From: Opitutia bacterium
Lineage (GTDB): Bacteria > Verrucomicrobiota > Verrucomicrobiia > Opitutales > Seribacteraceae
Assembly: GCA_002694035.1 (NCBI GenBank)
Contig: NZKY01000028.1
Span: 659-64,658 of the forward strand
Reading direction: 5' to 3'
Length of the DNA stretch: 64,000 bases
In this document: one piece after another, positions 7,561 to 22,081 of the stretch
Layout: every line of letters begins with the position of its first letter
How positions within the stretch are numbered: the first letter of the stretch is position 1
Program-made: the position numbers and the translations under genes
The notes under the pieces: generated by a model
Database searches by the model: none
Seen by the model: the letters and a program-made list of their open reading frames with translations, nothing else
Told to the model about the DNA's origin: nothing

Positions 7561-8352
7561 ATGATTTCGTCAGATGATCCTAAATATAATGTGCCAGGGT
7601 TAGACAGGGCACTTTCTATAATTGAGTTATTGAACCGGCAACCAGAGGGATTATCGGTAAATGAAATTTCAAACCAGTTGAAATATCCAATTAACAGTGT
7701 TTATCGGATTATGATGACATTGGAACGGAGAAGTTTTGTTAGAAAACAGTCAGGAGGATCCGTCTTTGTACTGTCTGAAAAATTTCTCACATTATCAACT
7801 CCTGTTGCCGGAGAACCAGCATTTATTGAAACTGCCCTACCCTTTATGAGAGACCTACGTGATGATACTCAAGAAACTGTGCTTGCCGGGGTACTGGTAG
7901 GGAATGAAGGAGTGGTACTCGAGCAATGCGAGGGATTGCATCCATTTAGCTTCAGAATATCCACTGGGCTGCGTTTTTCTCTCCATACAGCAGCACCTGG
8001 TAAAGTTTTTCTTGCTCATCTTGAACCAAAGAAAAGATCAAATATAATTAATTCATTGAATTTAAAAAGACTGACTGCCAATACAATCGTTACGAAAGAA
8101 AATTTAGAAAAGGAAGTGTTATTCGCAGTGCAAAACGGATTTGCTGTCGATTACGAGGAGGAATTTAAGGGTCAAGTCTGCGTCGGGGCACCAGTACTTG
8201 GTAAAAATGCCTCCCTTATAGGTTCCGTCTGGTTAGTCGCACCCACGAGCCGGTTGCCCAAAAAAAATCTTTCAGAAACAGCTCAAAAGGTAATGACGGC
8301 TACAGATAAAATTTCCCAAGCTTTAGGAAATCAATTCCGTAAGGTTGCCTAA
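7561..8352 (+). CDS. IclR family transcriptional regulator
   Basis: YNVPGLDRALSIIELL wHTH, followed by LHTAAPGKVFLA and DYEEEFKGQVCVGAPV effector-domain motifs. Confidence 0.95.
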   Translation: MISSDDPKYNVPGLDRALSIIELLNRQPEGLSVNEISNQLKYPINSVYRIMMTLERRSFVRKQSGGSVFVLSEKFLTLSTPVAGEPAFIETALPFMRDLRDDTQETVLAGVLVGNEGVVLEQCEGLHPFSFRISTGLRFSLHTAAPGKVFLAHLEPKKRSNIINSLNLKRLTANTIVTKENLEKEVLFAVQNGFAVDYEEEFKGQVCVGAPVLGKNASLIGSVWLVAPTSRLPKKNLSETAQKVMTATDKISQALGNQFRKVA

Positions 8353-13934: not shown

Positions 13935-14576
13935 CTAGAGTCGTTTAAGTATAACATCCCGAAGAACACCAGTTGTGGCAAATGTTGTTATACCCAGAGG
14001 TACTGACATTTCAATTTCTCCAAAGCGCATTCCCACCTTTCTTCCTTCTACTTCAACATCGATTACCTGTTCATCATCTATCCAAACAAAAATTTCACCT
14101 GAAGTAACCTTAAGTCGGATATCATACCATCGGTTATCCTCAAATATGTAGGCATCTCCTGTCTCATTTTCAGATGCATCAAAATCATCTATACTGGATA
14201 TTCCGATTAGAGATCCACCCCAACCTCCCAAAATCAAAGTCGCATGAGTATCATTATAGGGAAAGGTAAGACCACAAAAAAAATCGCTACCCATTGCTCT
14301 CTTTGCTTTTAGACAAATTTCATAATCTTTGACAGGCAAAGGTGGTCCAACCCAGTGAAGTCCAGATAATTCGGCTCCCATCTCTAATACAAGGCTTCCA
14401 TTTTCATCTATGAAAATTTCGCCTTTACCCGCATAGTCTGTTTTTTTCCAATTTTCTAAACTATAACCATTGAACAACATTTCGTTACTTGAGATTTGTG
14501 GTTCCCGTAAATTTTTCTCAGGCATACACCCATAAAACAAAAAGGATAAAATCAAAAAGATCGTAAGATTTTTCAT
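13935..14576 (-). CDS. DUF1080 (3-keto-disaccharide hydrolase-like) lipoprotein
   Basis: LFNGYSLENW, GSDFFCGLTFP, LILGGWGGSLIGISSID. Start moved to ATG 14576 (MKNLTIFLILSFLFYGC lipobox), since the longer ORF overlaps the VOC gene. Confidence 0.8.
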   Translation of the reverse strand: MKNLTIFLILSFLFYGCMPEKNLREPQISSNEMLFNGYSLENWKKTDYAGKGEIFIDENGSLVLEMGAELSGLHWVGPPLPVKDYEICLKAKRAMGSDFFCGLTFPYNDTHATLILGGWGGSLIGISSIDDFDASENETGDAYIFEDNRWYDIRLKVTSGEIFVWIDDEQVIDVEVEGRKVGMRFGEIEMSVPLGITTFATTGVLRDVILKRL

Positions 14577-14598: not shown

Positions 14599-14991
14599 TC
14601 AGATTTTAGGTCGTTCAATGACTTCAATCTCATATCCATCAGGAGCATCCACAAACGCAAAAACAGAACCAGATGAACTTTCTGTGGGACCTTCACTAAA
14701 GGACTGTCCAATTGATTCAAGATGAATTTGAAAATCACTCATACTTTCCACCTGAAATGCAAGATGCATCAAGTCTTCCTGAACCTCCACAGCTCCAGAA
14801 CCAGGAAAATATGTTAATTCTATCTCCTCTTCGCTATTTGGAACAGAAAGAAAAACCAACTTTGATCCGCGTGGAGACTCATGACTTCTCGACACTTCCA
14901 AACCAAAGGTTTCTTTGTAGAAGTTGACCGATTTTTCCAAATCGCTAACCCTCATTCTAGTATGTAAGAACTTACAGACAACAGGGGACAT
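14599..14991 (-). CDS. gloA: VOC family protein, lactoylglutathione lyase-like
   Basis: FLHTRMRVSDLEKSVNFY, IELTY, HLAFQV, FVDAPDGYEIEVIE. Confidence 0.75.
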   Translation of the reverse strand: MSPVVCKFLHTRMRVSDLEKSVNFYKETFGLEVSRSHESPRGSKLVFLSVPNSEEEIELTYFPGSGAVEVQEDLMHLAFQVESMSDFQIHLESIGQSFSEGPTESSSGSVFAFVDAPDGYEIEVIERPKI

Positions 14992-15003: not shown

Positions 15004-15459
15004 TCAAAAAGAAAATGTGACTTTTTCAACTCCAGCCTCAGAACAAGCATTCAGGACACTAATAGCTGATTGATGCTCAGCGATTCCAGAACTTTCAATT
15101 TGAACTTTAAGTTCTGCTTCCGCTTTTGTTTTAGCTCCAGAACTTATTAATTGATCACGCATTCCCTTTTGAACTTTTAAATTGGATACTAAATCAGGCA
15201 TTTCAAAGTCCAAACCATCTTCAATTTCAGAACCATTCAGATAAACTTCTCCTTGATCCCCAATTTTTACATTCAGCATATCCATTGGAGTAATGTCACT
15301 ACTTTGAGGTTTGCCTGGCAATTGAATAGATAACTCAGCCTCTGGTTGTTTCAGCATGGTAGTCACCATAAAATATATCAACAGAAGAAATGTAACATCG
15401 ATCATCGGAGTAAGATCGACATCATCTTCCTCATTTAAAATATTTTTTGCTGAATCCAT
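15004..15459 (-). CDS. exbD: Biopolymer transport protein ExbD/TolR
   Basis: DLTPMIDVTFLLLIYFMV single TM segment with conserved Asp; C-terminal NACSEAGVEKVTF. Confidence 0.9.
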   Translation of the reverse strand: MDSAKNILNEEDDVDLTPMIDVTFLLLIYFMVTTMLKQPEAELSIQLPGKPQSSDITPMDMLNVKIGDQGEVYLNGSEIEDGLDFEMPDLVSNLKVQKGMRDQLISSGAKTKAEAELKVQIESSGIAEHQSAISVLNACSEAGVEKVTFSF

Positions 15460-15462
15460 AAC

Positions 15463-15882
15463 TTAAGACGCACCTCCAGCAACTTGCCATGTTCCAAAAA
15501 TTATATCCGCTTGCCCAGCATTTCCGATTACTTTCATCACATCCTGAACAACAGCATGAGTAACCTTAGGATGAACTCTTAAGAAAACCTTCCACTCAGG
15601 GTTTCTTTTGACTGCTGTACCAATCGCTTCCATATCGATCTCCTGTTCACCCCAGTAAAACTTTTGGCCAACAGGAGTTTCGTCAATGCTAATGATTGTA
15701 CGAGGGGGAGGTTGTTCTTTCACATTTGAATTACCCGCAACAGGTAAAGCTGCCAATTCAATATACTGTTCTGACATCCTCTGAGCAACCACCATAAAAA
15801 AGACTATAAGTAGAAATACCACATCGATCATCGGAGTAAGATCAGGAGAGTCATTCGACTCAGGTGGTGTATATCTGCTCAT
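15463..15882 (-). CDS. exbD: Biopolymer transport protein ExbD/TolR (second copy)
   Basis: DLTPMIDVVFLLIVFFMV; VFLRVHPKVTHAVVQDVM. Confidence 0.9.
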   Translation of the reverse strand: MSRYTPPESNDSPDLTPMIDVVFLLIVFFMVVAQRMSEQYIELAALPVAGNSNVKEQPPPRTIISIDETPVGQKFYWGEQEIDMEAIGTAVKRNPEWKVFLRVHPKVTHAVVQDVMKVIGNAGQADIIFGTWQVAGGAS

Positions 15883-15917
15883 TTATGGAAGGATAAAAGG
15901 TAACTTAAATGAAACCT

Positions 15918-16760
15918 CTACTGAGCAGGAGGAGGCATAGGAGGAGCCTCGGGTGCAGGTGCGGGTATTCCCGGGGCAACATTTGGATCTTCCTCTTCGT
16001 AATATTGTTCTTCTTCACCTCCGCCAAAGCCACCCCTTGCTGCTCGTACAAGAGTAAATACCATTTCGCCAGCAACTCTGTTTACTTCAGCCACAATGGT
16101 GCCAAATTTTGTTTTGTAGATGAAATAAGAAATAAGTGTCGGAATTGCGACTACAAGACCTGCGGCAGTTGTCCATAGAGCACTACCAATATTACCGGCC
16201 ATCTTCTGACTCGATTCACCCCCCATACCAGAAGCCTGTAAGACTTGGAACGCTCCAATCATACCCGTAACTGTACCAAGAAGACCAACCATCGGGGCAA
16301 TGGAGCCAACGGTATTAAGCAAGTTGATCCAAGTAAATGGCTTAGCCAACTCGAGGCTGGAACTTTCCTCCAATCCTTTTTCGATAGACTCAATATCCAA
16401 CTCATCATCCTTTATACGGGCGAGTCCCCCTTTTAAGACTGAGGTTACCGGCAATTTGTACTGCTCACACAATGCCAACGCACCATCCACATTTAAATTT
16501 TGTAACTCTTGCATTATCGGCTGAATCACATCCTCTTTAACAAAAGCTTTTTTTCGAATAGCTATGCCGTTATATATTATAAGAGTAAATCCAGCTAGTA
16601 TTAAAATAATAAATGGGACAAGAAAGGGGCCAAGGTTATCCACTAAGGCACTTCCAAAACCTTTTTGTTGGGCATGTGCCAAGTTTGCAAAGAAACTAGG
16701 TGATAAACTAGCAAAGATTATTCCCAGTATTCTTATTGATCGGTTCAATCTTAATTTCAT
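15918..16760 (-). CDS. exbB: MotA/TolQ/ExbB proton channel protein
   Basis: LNTVGSIAPMVGLLGTVTGMIGAF and IGSALWTTAAGLVVAIP. Start set at ATG 16760 (signal-like ...ANLAHA|QQ). Confidence 0.92.
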   Translation of the reverse strand: MKLRLNRSIRILGIIFASLSPSFFANLAHAQQKGFGSALVDNLGPFLVPFIILILAGFTLIIYNGIAIRKKAFVKEDVIQPIMQELQNLNVDGALALCEQYKLPVTSVLKGGLARIKDDELDIESIEKGLEESSSLELAKPFTWINLLNTVGSIAPMVGLLGTVTGMIGAFQVLQASGMGGESSQKMAGNIGSALWTTAAGLVVAIPTLISYFIYKTKFGTIVAEVNRVAGEMVFTLVRAARGGFGGGEEEQYYEEEDPNVAPGIPAPAPEAPPMPPPAQ

Positions 16761-16827
16761 AATATTTGTTGATTTTATTTTTCTAGAATTACTTGCGTGA
16801 GCAGAAAGGGTCAAGAACAGGTTTTGA

Positions 16828-18063
16828 TTATGTTGTGGGTAGATTAGCTAATCTTTTTTCGCTCTCAGCGGCCCATTTCGTACCATCATAAAAAATTTTA
16901 ACTTGTTTGTAGACATTTTTCGCAGCCTCATTGAGTTCCAATTTTTCATAGGCATCGCCGGCCATCATGAGGGACTCGGGTAACCAATCAAGACCAACTC
17001 TAGCACTAACAATTCCCTCGGTAACTTCGAGAACGGATTGTCTGTAAAATTCGGCTGCTTTTACACTGTCACCAGCTTGTTCAAATTGTCTCGCATATTG
17101 AACGCGCAACAGAGCTCGAATTAATTTATATAAAGAATATTCATTGGTTTGCCGAGCAGGAGGACTTTGATCTATTTTCTTAACTGTTTGAATAGCCGTG
17201 CTAAAAATCTTTCTTGCAGCTTCACCGTAGCGTGCATCCTTGGCAGCTGCCCTAGAGTAAGTTTCATATAATTTGATGTAACAATACACAGGCCAAATCT
17301 CGACAATTTTTGCGTATGGACTGCCAATCGATTTGTTTACAATAGGGCCAAGCCGTGCATATTCAGATATAGCTTCGTTATAAAGTCCTTTAATTCTCAA
17401 AGAATCAGCTAATTTTAAATAAGAGGCATGATCAGCACTGTTATTTCGAATAGTTACTTTTTGAAGAAGGGCTCTGGCGATCTTTGCAGATTTTGAATTT
17501 GCCTGAATCATTTTACTAGCAAGACCCAAAGAAGCTTCAGAAAAGTCCCTGTATCCGAAGCTGTCTAGTTTATTTAAATTCAGGCGAGATAAAATATAAA
17601 AGGCTTCATCAAATTGCTCCATTTCAATGAGGGCATTGACATAGATTAAACAGTTATCATGTACGGCAAAATATTTCTGGGGAATTTCCAAATACAAAAG
17701 TGCTTTGTAAATCATGGGGCGTAACGACGGTAAAAATTTAACATCATACTGTTCATTTGAAAATGATTTCAAAATTTTGATAGAATCTTCAGGCCAATTA
17801 AAAACAAATCCCTTAATATTTTGTTTTTCCAGTCCACGCAGTTCTAACTGCATTCTACCAGCACCGTCCATCTGTGCATATATGATTCCCCTCTGGCCAT
17901 CAACCCCAAGCAAACTTCCTGGCTTTCCTGCGTTACCCACATAAATTTTTACTGGAAGTGGACCGGAATGAATTTTAAAATAATCCTTGTTTGTTTGTCC
18001 ATAAAGGGAGCAGGAAAAACTCAAAAATAGACCGAAAAACAAATTTATCGTGTAATACCTCAT
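16828..18063 (-). CDS. Secreted TPR-like helical repeat protein
   Basis: Signal peptide; helical repeats (ADSLRIKGLYNEAISEY, LMMAGDAYEKLELNEAAKNVYKQVKIFY). Confidence 0.7.
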   Translation of the reverse strand: MRYYTINLFFGLFLSFSCSLYGQTNKDYFKIHSGPLPVKIYVGNAGKPGSLLGVDGQRGIIYAQMDGAGRMQLELRGLEKQNIKGFVFNWPEDSIKILKSFSNEQYDVKFLPSLRPMIYKALLYLEIPQKYFAVHDNCLIYVNALIEMEQFDEAFYILSRLNLNKLDSFGYRDFSEASLGLASKMIQANSKSAKIARALLQKVTIRNNSADHASYLKLADSLRIKGLYNEAISEYARLGPIVNKSIGSPYAKIVEIWPVYCYIKLYETYSRAAAKDARYGEAARKIFSTAIQTVKKIDQSPPARQTNEYSLYKLIRALLRVQYARQFEQAGDSVKAAEFYRQSVLEVTEGIVSARVGLDWLPESLMMAGDAYEKLELNEAAKNVYKQVKIFYDGTKWAAESEKRLANLPTT

Positions 18064-20228
18064 TATTTTAAGAATTTACGTTGCCAATCAACATACTGTT
18101 TTTCGACTTTTGTTATTTGATCAGACTGACCACTCTGTTCATAGCAACGGATTGCCTGCTCGTATGATTTAGAAGCCCATTTTGAGGCACTTGGAAAATT
18201 CAGTGTGGTATCCAAATAATAGTAAGCTGCTCCTGCATAGTCTCGAATTGCTCTTTTACACTCGCCCATCATGAAAGAAGACTGTGCACGTTGCTCCAGA
18301 GTAGCATCAGTATCACTCTTCACTTCAGTAAAAGAAGACACAGCACGGTCATAAAGACTACTATCCTTGGATGCCTGCCCCACTTCATACAAAGACTCGC
18401 CTAGCCTAATTCTTGCATCGTTTGCGCTGTCATGCCATGACGAATTTGCCAATGCGGATTCAAAGTAATCCACTGCCTGCTGGTAGCTTCTTTCCTGCTG
18501 CTTTGCCTGACCGAGAATATAATTTGCATCAAAAAGAAATTCACCCCCCGTTTCGCCAAAAAGATCTACTAGCCTTTCCATAGCCGCAATTGCATCCTCT
18601 GTAGAATTTTGAGCAAGAAGCTTATTGGCCATCCAAACCAAGACTCCCGGACTAGCCGCAGGAAAATCACTACGTTGCGGGTTATAGCTTCCACCCGCCT
18701 TTGATCCAACCCGATCCAGAGTTGCCCTCATTCTAAGTTCAAGTGTTTTACTACCCGAATTCTTTGCCTGATTAAGAAGATTTGCAAATGCTACCTGGGG
18801 AGACAAATCAGAGGGAAATCCATTCTGAAGATTTTTATATTTCTTTAGATATCCCTTAAACTTTTCCATATGAGACGGGCTGGAAAAAATAGCACCCCTT
18901 GATTTTACCACATCGCTGTAAATATCTTGATCCATTCCCTCGTAATTAGCAGACAAGAAAGGAAGCAGTTTTTTTCGATCCCCAATTATTTCCTCAACTG
19001 TTCCGGAAATGGTTTCCTCAATACCTTTTCGGTCTCGATATGTAAAAGTAACCGACTGACTTGGGTTCTGTAGTTTTTCTAGAAGATCAAGAGAGCGACC
19101 ATAAAGTTTATTATACTCATCATATTTTTCAGTATACTTATTTAAAATTCCATCTACCCCGACATTGTTTGGATCATTACCATATTTCTCAATATCCTTG
19201 TAATACAGATTGAGCATATCCGATGGTCTCCCAAGCATTTCACTAGCAAAACCAATTTTCTCAGTAGCTTCCGAAATACGGGCTTCATTACTTTCAGAAA
19301 ACTTCTCCGAATATGATTTGAACAAACTTTCCATATTCGAATAATAAACGAAAGAAGCTACATCATATAATTCACCATAATCGAGAGACTTATCTCCATT
19401 AAGATCGAATTCACTAAGGCTTTTATCTGCGTTTAAACCGATAGAGTTATATTCAGAAGACTGTAGCACTTCATCCTTATTTTTATCAAAGCTAAGGTAA
19501 TGGTCAACAACACCTTCCGGGTTATCGGCAACTCTTTCAAGAAGACCTCCTTCATTAAATGTTGCATCCGTTATCAATCTCATCTCCTGAGATTTTTCTC
19601 TTACAAAATTATAGTTTTTTTGGGCACTTTCAATCTGATCGAATGTTGGTTGTTCATCCGGTTTTACATCACTAATCGCAAGATCTCCTAAACTTAAATA
19701 AGCTTCCGCCACCATTTTATCATCCGGGAATTTAGTCACATATTCCTCAAAAAGACGAATGGCGTTTGGATTGTCTTGTGAACCCTGGTATGCAACTGCC
19801 AGTCTAAACATAGCATCCTTGTAATATTCTTCATCAGGGAAATGTCTCGCTTTCCCGCCGCCACTCCATTTTTCATTTATTGATTCCTGACCTGTCGAAA
19901 TAGTCTTACCTCCTCCCGCCTTATCAGTAATTTTCCATGTGGATCCGTTAAACCACATGAAAAAACCATCACCATTTGCATACACAGGCTTTCCATTTTT
20001 TTCTTCACCGGATGGAAGATAAACCCCATTGGGATCGGGTAATTCTTTAGGTTCAGGCTCAGGTTCAGGCTCAGGTTTTTCCTCAACAACTTTTTCAGGT
20101 TGCTCAACAGGTGTTTGAGTCTCCTTGTCGGCATTTGTTGTCTCACTGGTTGAAATTTCTTCTTCTCCTCCACATGAAAAGAAAAGAAAAACAGCAAGCT
20201 GTACGAGTGTAGAAAGAAAAATTCTCAT
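18063..20228 (-). CDS. TPR lipoprotein with Pro/Glu linker and EF-hand-like pair
   Basis: Start ATG 20228 behind a GGGGGAAG purine tract; LAVFLFFSC lipobox-like; KPEPEPEP linker; TPR-like units (AIRLFEEYVTKFPDDKMVAEAYLSLGD, ANYILGQAKQQERSYQQAVDYF, SSFMMGECKR). Confidence 0.75.
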   Translation of the reverse strand: MRIFLSTLVQLAVFLFFSCGGEEEISTSETTNADKETQTPVEQPEKVVEEKPEPEPEPEPKELPDPNGVYLPSGEEKNGKPVYANGDGFFMWFNGSTWKITDKAGGGKTISTGQESINEKWSGGGKARHFPDEEYYKDAMFRLAVAYQGSQDNPNAIRLFEEYVTKFPDDKMVAEAYLSLGDLAISDVKPDEQPTFDQIESAQKNYNFVREKSQEMRLITDATFNEGGLLERVADNPEGVVDHYLSFDKNKDEVLQSSEYNSIGLNADKSLSEFDLNGDKSLDYGELYDVASFVYYSNMESLFKSYSEKFSESNEARISEATEKIGFASEMLGRPSDMLNLYYKDIEKYGNDPNNVGVDGILNKYTEKYDEYNKLYGRSLDLLEKLQNPSQSVTFTYRDRKGIEETISGTVEEIIGDRKKLLPFLSANYEGMDQDIYSDVVKSRGAIFSSPSHMEKFKGYLKKYKNLQNGFPSDLSPQVAFANLLNQAKNSGSKTLELRMRATLDRVGSKAGGSYNPQRSDFPAASPGVLVWMANKLLAQNSTEDAIAAMERLVDLFGETGGEFLFDANYILGQAKQQERSYQQAVDYFESALANSSWHDSANDARIRLGESLYEVGQASKDSSLYDRAVSSFTEVKSDTDATLEQRAQSSFMMGECKRAIRDYAGAAYYYLDTTLNFPSASKWASKSYEQAIRCYEQSGQSDQITKVEKQYVDWQRKFLK
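20050..20077. repeat. In-frame 12-nt tandem repeat (GGTTCAGGCTCA)2 encoding a PEPEPEP linker
   Basis: Direct reading of 20050-20073, plus a partial third unit. Confidence 0.7.
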
Positions 20229-20232
20229 TTGA

Positions 20233-22005
20233 TTAATCTTCCCCCCTTTCCTGCAAATCACCTTCCTCAGGTACTCCACCTAGAGGCAAACCCTCAATAT
20301 TGACTCCAACAACAGCACCTAAAAGTGGCTTTGCCTCATCGAACTTACCAGTTGCGAGTAAAGCCAATCCGCTCATGTAATGTGCGGTCGGCATGGATGG
20401 ACTTTTAAAAAATGCTTTATTGTTAACATATCCATTGGCACGATTCATTACACCATTTTCAAAACCAGCAAATTTTTCCAAAAGACCATTAAAGTTTTTG
20501 CGCTTAAAATAAACGGATCCCATCATTCCGACGAAATCCTTAGCATACTTATGTTCAGGCATTACATTAATAAAATCATTACAAAGAGAAAAAAATCGTT
20601 CATAATACTCCGCAGACTTAGTTTTTGACTTTTCAGCACGATCCCGTTCAGTTGTTCCCAATTCATTTTGGAGGCTGACTGCAATTTGATTTAAAGTTTC
20701 AGCTTCCTGTCTGTAAGCATTAGCCATAATAAATGTGACATCAGCACGGAATTTAGTCCATTTTTTGTTTGCAAGATATTTTTCTCCGAGTTCGATCGAT
20801 TTCTCACGGTATTTAACTGTGTTAGCAGAAGCAAATGCTGCATAAATGAAATTCTCAACATTTTCATGCTTAGGAAAATCGTTATAAAGCCAGTAAAATC
20901 CCCAAAAAGATTCCCAGTCACGTTTGGTCAATTGAAAATTATCTGCTTTTCGCCATCTCAGAACGGTGGTAAATGGAGGCGTATCCATTGCCAATTTCAA
21001 CTGACCTTTTGAACTGGTTAACTTCATAGCAATTGTATTGGACTTTTCTTTTAAAATTTCCAACCGTCGCTTCGGCATAGTGCTACCCTGTAAGGCGATA
21101 ATTTGCTCGTATTGAGAAAGTTCAGTTTGCAACTGTTTTTGCCTCTCTTTGTAAAAAGCAACAATCTCCTCGGTCGTCATTGTTAAAGCGTAAAAAAGAG
21201 ACGCTTCCACATGCCTTCCCGCATCTTTTAGTTGTGCAGCTCCTTGCATGAGGTTAACATTTAATCTTAAATCATATCTAGCCGGTGTGTCACCGGAGAG
21301 CCTTGGTAATAAGGGAAAAACTTCATCAATTCTTTTGGTCTGAACAAACATTTCAGTTAGACATGATACAGCATAAGCAGAACGATCTTCATCTTTTGCT
21401 AGGTCTGCATACTTCAAAAGTTCACGGAATGAAGGTTCACCTTTTACCCAATCCTGCTCGATATGATAACATTGAGCCCGCCCAAAATACAAATTCATCA
21501 ACTCGGACCTCTTTAAAATTTGTTTTTTGTAAGGTTTGGCTGAATCAAGTAAAAGTTCAATAACTCTAGCCGCATCTTTCCATTCATGAAGGGCACGTAA
21601 GCAATCTGTTCTCTTTTGTAAAGCCATGACAGCTTTAGGGTCATTTGGAAATTTCTCAGCGAAAAAACCGAAGGCACTTGATGCCTTTCCTAAAAAATCT
21701 TGGTTTCCCGTTTTAGCAAAACTTTGCAAATATCCAACACCACGAACGAAACCGAATTGTTGGAGAATTTTTTCCACTTCGGGATCTTCTTCATCCTCAA
21801 AACGAACTTCTAACTCGTCAAGTAAAGGGGAAGCTCCGGCAAAATCTCCCTTACCAATCAAAGCCTGAGCTTCCGAGATTACCTGCCTCAACGGCATGTC
21901 GGCAGGACTCTGTCCATGGCAAATTGTTGAGGAGAGAAATAAACTTAAAAAAAGCACCAAAACAGGTACCAACGAATATGATTTAAAAGGGTTTCTTCGG
22001 GGCAT
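20233..22005 (-). CDS. Secreted TPR-like helical repeat protein
   Basis: Signal peptide; EAQALIGKGDFAGA, FAEKFPNDPKA, YFGRAQCYHIEQDW, HYMSGLALLATGKFDEAK repeats. Confidence 0.72.
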   Translation of the reverse strand: MPRRNPFKSYSLVPVLVLFLSLFLSSTICHGQSPADMPLRQVISEAQALIGKGDFAGASPLLDELEVRFEDEEDPEVEKILQQFGFVRGVGYLQSFAKTGNQDFLGKASSAFGFFAEKFPNDPKAVMALQKRTDCLRALHEWKDAARVIELLLDSAKPYKKQILKRSELMNLYFGRAQCYHIEQDWVKGEPSFRELLKYADLAKDEDRSAYAVSCLTEMFVQTKRIDEVFPLLPRLSGDTPARYDLRLNVNLMQGAAQLKDAGRHVEASLFYALTMTTEEIVAFYKERQKQLQTELSQYEQIIALQGSTMPKRRLEILKEKSNTIAMKLTSSKGQLKLAMDTPPFTTVLRWRKADNFQLTKRDWESFWGFYWLYNDFPKHENVENFIYAAFASANTVKYREKSIELGEKYLANKKWTKFRADVTFIMANAYRQEAETLNQIAVSLQNELGTTERDRAEKSKTKSAEYYERFFSLCNDFINVMPEHKYAKDFVGMMGSVYFKRKNFNGLLEKFAGFENGVMNRANGYVNNKAFFKSPSMPTAHYMSGLALLATGKFDEAKPLLGAVVGVNIEGLPLGGVPEEGDLQERGED

Positions 22006-22081
22006 AAATGAGATAGTGAACTAATAAAAAAGACTGCAAGATTTCCCGCAAGCTTTTTCATCAAAACTGAGTCCCATGTGT

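Follow-up and report, generated by a model that had tools for sequence, protein, structure and literature searches.

How does a motor of the ExbB/ExbD kind work when neither a TonB nor a TolA gene stands beside it? The usual view is that motors of the ExbBD/TolQR type require an arm like TonB or TolA. The question is raised by a run of six genes in a 64,000-nucleotide stretch of an Opitutia bacterium genome (GenBank assembly GCA_002694035.1, contig NZKY01000028.1, positions 659 to 64,658 of the forward strand; hereafter the window), in which genes for three exported tetratricopeptide repeat (TPR)-type proteins are followed by genes for one ExbB and two distinct ExbD proteins. An earlier note on this DNA, made from its letters alone, proposed that the TPR proteins, and especially a lipoprotein with a TonB-like (PE)n linker, act as the transducer of an uncharacterised envelope machine of the Planctomycetes-Verrucomicrobia-Chlamydiae (PVC) bacteria. 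We compared the locus with its orthologues and conclude that it is probably a genus-specific, remodelled copy of a known PVC system, in which TPR, TolQ-like and two TolR-like genes are combined with a gene for a force transducer whose head is of von Willebrand factor A (vWA) type.

A tightly coupled TPR-motor operon

The window is contig C6 of a 2.88 Mb assembly (our genome G000) that is 93% complete. The six genes lie on the minus strand, from position 22005 to 15004, in the order T590, T721, T411, ExbB, ExbDa and ExbDb, and are separated by gaps of -1 to 67 nt. The ATG of T721 lies 4 nt past the stop codon of T590, the start of T411 overlaps the stop codon of T721 by 1 nt (TAATG), and ExbDa and ExbDb are 3 nt apart; the ATG start of ExbB is supported by its orthologues. 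Pfam matches and coordinates confirmed the tight coupling of three exported TPR proteins with an ExbB and two different ExbD proteins, as the earlier note had read it. The features of the operon are:

20233-22005, minus strand: T590, exported helical/TPR protein with a cleavable signal peptide and weak TPR matches (Pfam)
18063-20228, minus strand: T721, TPR lipoprotein with lipobox LFFSC-GG and TPR matches (Pfam)
20025-20228, minus strand: signal peptide of T721 with its lipobox (LFFSC, 20172-20186), then the disordered acidic tether
20049-20075, minus strand: (PE)4 run within the T721 tether
19884-20024, minus strand: small five-strand beta domain of T721, lineage-specific
19371-19487, minus strand: EF-hand-like loop pair of T721 (DKNKDEVLQSSE and DLNGDKSLDYGE), in an insert absent from fused homologues
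16828-18063, minus strand: T411, exported, with a small beta domain at its N-terminus and then a TPR-like solenoid; directly upstream of ExbB
15918-16760, minus strand: ExbB/TolQ-like proton-channel subunit, 280 aa (PF01618, 3.2e-27)
15463-15882, minus strand: ExbDa, ExbD/TolR-like paralogue 1, 139 aa (PF02472, 2.1e-16)
15004-15459, minus strand: ExbDb, ExbD/TolR-like paralogue 2, 151 aa (PF02472, 1.1e-20)

Orthologous clusters in other Opitutales are accompanied by a vWA-type arm

When 401 Verrucomicrobiota genomes were searched with T411, the protein turned up mainly in one Opitutales family (21 of 26 genomes). Outside the window's genus, we inspected the neighbourhoods of 16 clusters from 15 Opitutales/Verrucomicrobiota genomes. 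Their order is a fused TPR gene (encoding ~1000-1110 aa), a T411-like gene, ExbB, ExbDa and ExbDb, with identical gene order and reciprocal paralogue assignment in G294, G054, G309, G204, G198, G021, G246, G433, G435 and others. The T411 orthologue keeps its position before ExbB in each examined cluster with a full-length ExbB-ExbD-ExbD set, and in all such clusters ExbDa and ExbDb form two separate orthologous series. Two out-of-order loci (L060 and L061) gave no T411 match.

A gene for a bitopic vWA-type protein adjoins 12 of the 16 clusters (11 of the 15 genomes); in G433 it comes after a glyoxalase gene, which itself follows ExbDb. The other four genomes carry a strong full-length orthologue elsewhere (E 1e-98 to 1e-188). 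The protein has 430-465 aa and TonB topology: a short cytoplasmic N-terminus, a transmembrane helix, a Pro/Glu-rich linker and a vWA-like C-terminal domain. Its helix carries an S-x3-H motif in 11 of the 12 proteins inspected, with S22 and H26 invariant in 11 aligned sequences; the copy in G001 has Val where His is expected, so the His of this motif is not absolute. The heads have a degenerate metal ion-dependent adhesion site (MIDAS) motif (DANRH / DVGTY), and their Pfam VWA matches are weak or absent. An arm gene is thus essentially a normal companion of the orthologous clusters, next to them or elsewhere in the genome, which speaks against the TPR proteins as the transducer.

We also noted two tandem vWA transducer genes in L089 (G435:C1, 6082-8740) and in L104 (G312:C2, 4471-7433), and a second, reduced cluster in G138 that has only one ExbD, with a vWA protein of 380 aa (L055). 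In one distant relative, FtsW/RodA adjoins the cluster.

Systems of this kind have been described by Williams-Jones et al. (Mol Biol Evol 2025, PMC12204202), who predicted vWA force transducers from AlphaFold 3 models and gene neighbourhoods. Their transducers combine an SHLS helix, a linker that is disordered and includes a motor box, and a vWA domain at the C-terminus, and the PVC loci among them, of the Tichowtungia aerotolerans type, read TPR, tolQ-like, two heterologous tolR-like, vWA. The function was left as unknown and no mutant phenotypes were reported, so that the kind of system is already known, in silico only. The earlier note's picture of an uncharacterised PVC envelope machine with an ExbB/TolQ-like and two heterologous ExbD/TolR-like subunits fits well with this. 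The paper mentions one TPR gene, whereas the Opitutales clusters have two conserved ones.

The motor proteins carry the residues of a proton-driven stator

Judged from their sequences, ExbB, ExbDa and ExbDb carry the residues of a proton-driven stator of the 5:2 type. The pore residues P156, T163, T197/T198 and P207 of ExbB are invariant across 16 orthologues, and its closest solved relatives are TolQ (6.8e-16) and then ExbB. The TPMIDV motif of ExbDa aligns to TPFIDV of solved ExbD structures, with the transmembrane Asp kept, and ExbDb likewise keeps this Asp. By NCBIfam, the motor proteins are nearer to TolQ/TolR than to ExbB/ExbD, yet far below all equivalog cut-offs: ExbB scored 71.8 against TIGR02796 (TolQ, cut-off 221) and 38.8 bits against TIGR02797 (ExbB, cut-off 206), while the ExbD paralogues scored 50.6 and 37.6 against TIGR02801 (TolR, cut-off 127) and 28.5 and 23.8 bits against TIGR02803 (ExbD, cut-off 153). 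The N-terminus of ExbB resembles a signal peptide. Its cytoplasmic tail, (E/G)EYYEE and then a stretch rich in Pro, occurs only in the orthologues of the genus.

In a cryo-EM structure, Ser16 and His20 of TonB contact Ser34 and Trp38 of ExbB (PMC12215075). This contact site could not be mapped onto the ExbB of the window, where the local alignments of the profile searches stop short of the first transmembrane helix. By eye, this helix has Thr in the genus, and Gly or Ala in other families, four residues before a near-invariant Tyr, which we record as a lead only.

T590 and T721 correspond to the two halves of a giant TPR protein

Residues 11-514 of T590 align to residues 15-463 of the fused protein TPR1008 of G433, with similar ranges in other fused homologues, and residues 129-232 and 298-713 of T721 correspond to fused residues 504-598 and 604-987. 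On these alignments, T590 is the N-terminal half and T721 the C-terminal half of a ~1000-aa TPR protein that is encoded by a single gene in other families. T590 plus T721, and T411, are thus exported TPR solenoids, and their orthologues are the two TPR proteins encoded ahead of the motor genes across the Opitutales. The possibility that an assembly error or frameshift had created the split was ruled out: T721 was found in 23 of 24 genomes of the genus, at 56-84% identity and with its own conserved lipobox. This distribution indicates that the split is real and old.

None of the fused TPR proteins is a lipoprotein; their signal peptides are of the ordinary kind. By contrast, an SCGG(D/E)(E/D) lipobox motif is kept in all 10 aligned genus orthologues of T721, and is followed by an acidic tether of 40-65 aa that varies in length and sequence among them. 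The (PE)n run within this tether, which the earlier note had likened to the linker of TonB, gives way to different acidic residues in several of the orthologues, and an NMT1-type ABC substrate-binding lipoprotein encoded in the same genome (contig C115) starts in the same way, with LFSCGG plus (PE)n. We therefore reject a TonB-like role for the run and regard it as a tether of the lipoprotein and not as a mark of TonB. Whether T721 and the C115 protein share a larger N-terminal module was also considered; they have in common the signal peptide and the tether only, the rest of the C115 protein being an NMT1-type binding protein.

AlphaFold2 models of T721 and T411, for which family alignments were used, came out with good confidence. 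The T721 model (predicted local distance difference test score, pLDDT, 82.4) has disordered residues 1-68 (pLDDT <50), a beta domain at residues 69-115 and a solenoid at residues 133-720. Foldseek searches with this model returned generic TPR scaffolds (Ctr9, Ski3, IFT-A, APC/C and OGT), and the Campylobacter flagellar periplasmic scaffold 9hmf_K at rank 13 with a TM-score of about 0.18. The T411 model (pLDDT 89.7) consists of strands at residues 36-87 and helices at residues 92-407; its best Foldseek match was BamD (E 1.5e-4, with a low TM-score), followed by generic TPR proteins, and its Pfam TPR matches are weak. T721 matched the YbgF/CpoB TPR model TIGR02795 at 5.3e-18 and 65.7 bits, below the cut-off of 90. 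In the fused homologue a YfiO/BamD-type match passed the threshold, and YbgF/CpoB-like matches were sub-threshold. The predicted folds would fit a scaffold or a target of the motor and say nothing specific on function.

Beyond the lipobox and the tether, T721 carries further additions. The beta domain at residues 69-115 is highly conserved within the genus, matches no Pfam family and gave 46 matches only among 1.84 billion representative proteins; the strong ones look, by identity and position, like T721-type proteins or fragments, and the weak ones that we scanned include WD40 and FG-GAP propeller-repeat proteins. From these matches the domain seems confined to T721-type proteins. Two EF-hand-like loops, at residues 248-259 and 275-286, lie in a ~65-residue insert unique to the genus orthologues and are a probable Ca2+ site. 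Lastly, a beta hairpin at residues 392-410 is another genus-specific addition.

The remodelled locus is shared across the genus

Relatives with the locus comprise 47 species-level records, of marine Opitutales/Opitutia metagenome-assembled or single-cell genomes, among them "Candidatus Seribacter sulfatis", whose genus is reportedly a degrader of sulfated glycans. As far as each locus extends, these records and the nine genus loci that we inspected share the arrangement OppD-OppF / T590-T721-T411-ExbB-ExbDa-ExbDb-glyoxalase-DUF1080. Given the same order in 47 species-level records, the cluster is not a chance arrangement. The TPR proteins are the most tightly linked partners of the motor, in line with the earlier note. 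No vWA gene was found within 7 kb of the locus in the nine genus loci or the 47 records. What is new here is this genus-wide split and lipidated giant TPR protein, together with a canonical arm that is missing or has drastically diverged.

Candidates for the arm in the genome

A TonB_C search of the whole assembly gave one match, at C49:6457-6681, and a sub-threshold match on contig C42; the window holds no TonB_C gene, in agreement with the earlier note. A hidden TonB or TolA in the window or elsewhere in the genome was considered and set aside, the only TonB_C gene being that of C49, inside a motor cluster of its own. This cluster (C49:5081-10710, L011) is TonB2/Ttp-like and holds the genome's only canonical TonB. 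Its genes encode a coiled-coil protein (255 aa), a long ExbB-like protein (468 aa), an ExbB (200 aa), two ExbD proteins, the TonB (227 aa) and a TPR protein (455 aa); the transmembrane helix of this TonB lacks His. A regular-expression scan of the genome for bitopic S-x3-H proteins found none, a crude scan that also misses the C49 TonB.

Searches with the closest canonical vWA protein, that of G433, detected no canonical orthologue in 41 genomes of the genus (12 of high quality); the best match had an E-value of 1.7e-10 at 22% identity. The assembly of the window is 93% complete, though all 41 genomes agree. The label TonB-less is right for the window, and in this genus it stays of interest because of that absence. 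A hidden Markov model search of the six-frame translated genome returned the same three weak relatives, on contigs C10, C31 and C97. Those on C31 (13291-14358) and C97 (5899-6990) are paralogous ~360-aa proteins with a transmembrane helix and a vWA domain with intact DxSxS, and are distant relatives of the vWA transducers. They lack S-x3-H and lie directly downstream of DUF1501 genes (in C97, the upstream gene encodes a 1242-aa protein). The third relative is:

C10:85350-86768 (L063 937-2355): C10-type protein, 472 aa, unlinked to the operon

The C10-type gene is present in all 12 high-quality genomes of the genus and is a core gene. In an hhalign comparison with the canonical vWA transducers, the vWA-like periplasmic domain of the C10-type protein matched over the whole head (probability 97.8%, E 7e-13, 288 columns), and in G433, G435 and G246, which have no separate C10-type gene, its best match is the vWA transducer of the cluster. 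Its transmembrane helix 'LSLLINLGLIVFG' resembles the canonical 'LSLILHLLALLVFGG', with Asn replacing His (S-x3-N). In E. coli, Asn can replace His20 of TonB. The protein has an extra, conserved cytoplasmic domain of ~70 aa. We noted that the protein opens with a conserved ~50-aa cytoplasmic segment (FSGEQKLRIVLESIIRN…W.DHL…NGGKIF) that looks by eye like a transposase-type helix-turn-helix and has no Pfam match. Taken together, the C10-type protein is a possible, if tentative, partner of the motor.

A possible mechanism and the findings that weigh against it

We propose that the ExbB pentamer would surround an ExbDa/ExbDb heterodimer, and that the TPR proteins may serve as a periplasmic scaffold or target of this motor and not as a TonB-like arm. 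In other genera, the arm would be the inner-membrane-anchored protein with the vWA head. In the window's genus, the arm gene appears to have left the operon. It may have diverged beyond easy recognition into the unlinked C10-type protein, which we put forward with some hesitation; that the genus lost the arm gene altogether is a slightly less likely option. The second TPR half would have become membrane-tethered through its lipid anchor and acquired, besides a new beta domain, a probable Ca2+ site.

As for function, the near-universal presence of the cluster in the lineage suggests a housekeeping role. By analogy with Tol-Pal/CpoB, we tentatively suggest envelope maintenance, in which the system would coordinate outer membrane, wall and inner membrane. 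This guess fits a phylum that is largely without TolB: TolB_N has no match in the genome and is present in only 14 of the 401 genomes of the phylum. Two Pal/OmpA-like genes, on contig C19 only, scored below the cut-off.

Several findings weigh against this picture. In the tree, the C10-type proteins fall outside all canonical transducers, and their branch is very long. Throughout the genus their gene lies between RsmE and a DsbD_N/thioredoxin gene, a context unrelated to the motor, and a comparison with unlinked vWA genes of other genera found differing contexts and none shared. The linker of the C10-type protein is not Pro-rich, and Asn stands where His is usual. The likeness to Tol-Pal comes down to sub-threshold TPR similarities and the absence of TolB, and TolB is equally absent from many genomes of the phylum in which the T411 search detected no cluster. 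Finally, the system has been described from computation alone, the 2025 paper included.

Other readings of the locus

It is unlikely, in our view, that T721, with T590 and T411, took over the role of the transducer once the vWA arm had gone and that the ExbD periplasmic domains act directly on the tethered scaffold. The genus without a canonical vWA gene is the very genus in which the TPR protein is split and has gained a lipobox, a tether and a new beta domain; linkage to the motor is more constant for the TPR genes than for the vWA gene; and the regular-expression scan, crude as it is, found no bitopic S-x3-H protein in the genome. However, T721 is lipid-anchored and has no transmembrane helix to sit on ExbB as the helices of TonB and TolA do (PMC12215075), its PE run is not conserved and the same tether occurs on an ABC binding lipoprotein, and the core genes of the genus include one for a divergent vWA-family protein. 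For these reasons the earlier note's proposal of the TPR proteins, and of the (PE)n lipoprotein above all, as the transducer is not supported. It is also quite improbable that the motor, having lost its vWA arm, works without any transmembrane-helix transducer, its two ExbD periplasmic domains engaging a lipid-anchored, Ca2+-binding TPR scaffold through the tether and beta domain of T721. If true, this would be an unknown way of extracting force from this motor family, and a natural experiment in which the TPR-motor core, and not the arm, would prove to be what the PVC machine cannot do without.

The genome encodes one TonB_C protein and gave at least 12 matches to TonB-dependent transporters (TBDTs), the last gene of the C49 TonB cluster itself encodes a TPR protein, and TonB and TolA have been reported to use each other's motor if their own is absent (PMC12204202). 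On this basis the locus could be read as an extra ExbB-ExbD energiser for TonB-dependent uptake with the C49 TonB, to which the TPR proteins would be accessory as in TonB2-type clusters. We consider this very unlikely: the C49 TonB has two ExbB-like and two ExbD genes of its own, the orthologues of the motor pair with vWA-headed arms and not with TonB_C wherever an arm is linked, ExbB and the ExbD proteins fall far below the NCBIfam equivalog cut-offs (38.8 against 206 bits), and neither the 47 loci nor the nine genus loci have a TBDT gene within or next to the operon. Hardly probable at all is an engine for surface motility or adhesion of the Agl-Glt kind that would drive the large TPR proteins and a vWA head of adhesin type. 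The composition is the same (one TolQ-like, two distinct TolR-like and large TPR proteins), and gliding has been raised for vWA transducers (PMC12204202). Yet these are planktonic marine organisms that have flagellar genes, the MIDAS motif is degenerate in the vWA heads of the Opitutales transducers, and no other Glt proteins were seen near the locus, where no search was aimed at them. The remodelled vWA system thus remains our preferred reading.

Comparison with known systems

The locus shares its motor composition and its upstream TPR genes with the PVC vWA system, and is orthologous to the Opitutales clusters that carry the vWA transducer. It differs in having no vWA gene at the locus of the window's genus and no canonical one in the 41 genomes, in the split of the giant TPR protein, whose T721 half is lipidated and carries an EF-hand-like insert as well as a new beta domain, and in the new cytoplasmic tail of the genus ExbB. 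With Tol-Pal/CpoB it shares a TolQ/TolR-like stator and the YbgF/CpoB-like TPR modules of T721. Unlike Tol-Pal, it has no TolA-like gene at the locus, no TolB_N in the genome, two different TolR-like genes, and TPR proteins 3-8 times larger than CpoB. The Ton system shares the subunit of the proton-channel pentamer type and the Asp-bearing ExbD-type subunits, and the partner of the motor in related clusters has the topology of TonB, with its S-x3-H transmembrane helix and Pro-rich linker, but at the locus itself neither a TonB_C domain nor a linked TonB-dependent receptor is present.

The Agl-Glt machinery of Myxococcus xanthus combines AglR with AglQ/AglS and the TPR proteins GltD/GltE. The locus is alike in its one TolQ-like, two distinct TolR-like and large TPR proteins, a likeness by composition only; neither a TonB-like GltG/GltJ nor the outer-membrane Glt components were seen, with no search aimed at them, and the host is planktonic. 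For large TPR proteins of the periplasm that place 5:2 MotAB stators, Campylobacter PflA/PflB (PDB 9hmf) are a precedent, although the match of T721 is a generic TPR likeness and gives no evidence of homology. The cluster is not flagellar, the flagellar MotAB genes of the genome being on contig C18.

Neighbouring genes and further motors

Two genes downstream of ExbDb accompany the operon:

14599-14991, minus strand: glyoxalase/vicinal oxygen chelate (VOC) gene (PF00903, 2.6e-18), 12 nt after ExbDb
13935-14576, minus strand: DUF1080 (3-keto-disaccharide hydrolase fold) lipoprotein (PF06439, 2.6e-08) with lipobox LFYGC

The glyoxalase/VOC gene is probably co-transcribed with the operon and is a conserved seventh gene of a sub-clade, found in this place across the genus. 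We noted such a gene directly 3' of ExbDb in three families: in L053 (G001:C8, 7205-7582), in L088 (G433, 7825-8217) and in the window. The copies are 50-64% identical (64% for G001), a cytoplasmic enzyme conserved inside an envelope operon. The DUF1080 gene is downstream in 36 of 47 scored loci, and likewise in the genus loci inspected in detail; its lipoprotein is a constant downstream neighbour in the genus, and a functional tie to the motor is an unproven candidate. On the other side of the operon, a terminator-like hairpin with a T-run lies at 22034-22051, between the stop codon of OppF (22082) and the start of T590 (22005). The hairpin suggests that the TPR-motor operon has its own promoter; promoter and terminator scans as a whole did not rise above the shuffled background.

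Two further MotA/ExbB-like genes were seen on contigs C141 (L014 5584-8786) and C124 (L015 2489-5503). Each is followed by genes for two different proteins with an Asp-bearing N-terminal transmembrane segment (…SLDSLLDT… / …SLDMLLDT…) and coiled coils, one of them with SHD1. These may be additional non-flagellar 5:2 motors, possibly of the 'transpore-helix' class (PMC12204202).

Meaning of the remodelled system

An abundant marine genus keeps a motor and its TPR partners strongly conserved while the usual arm has been lost or is hardly recognisable. That the core was kept though the arm was lost or changed points to the TPR-motor core as the indispensable parts of the system. The locus is also a warning that Pro/Glu-rich linkers are no mark of TonB-like function. 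Candidates for what couples to the motor in this genus are the S-x3-N protein of the C10 type, the tethered T721 and the new cytoplasmic tail of ExbB.

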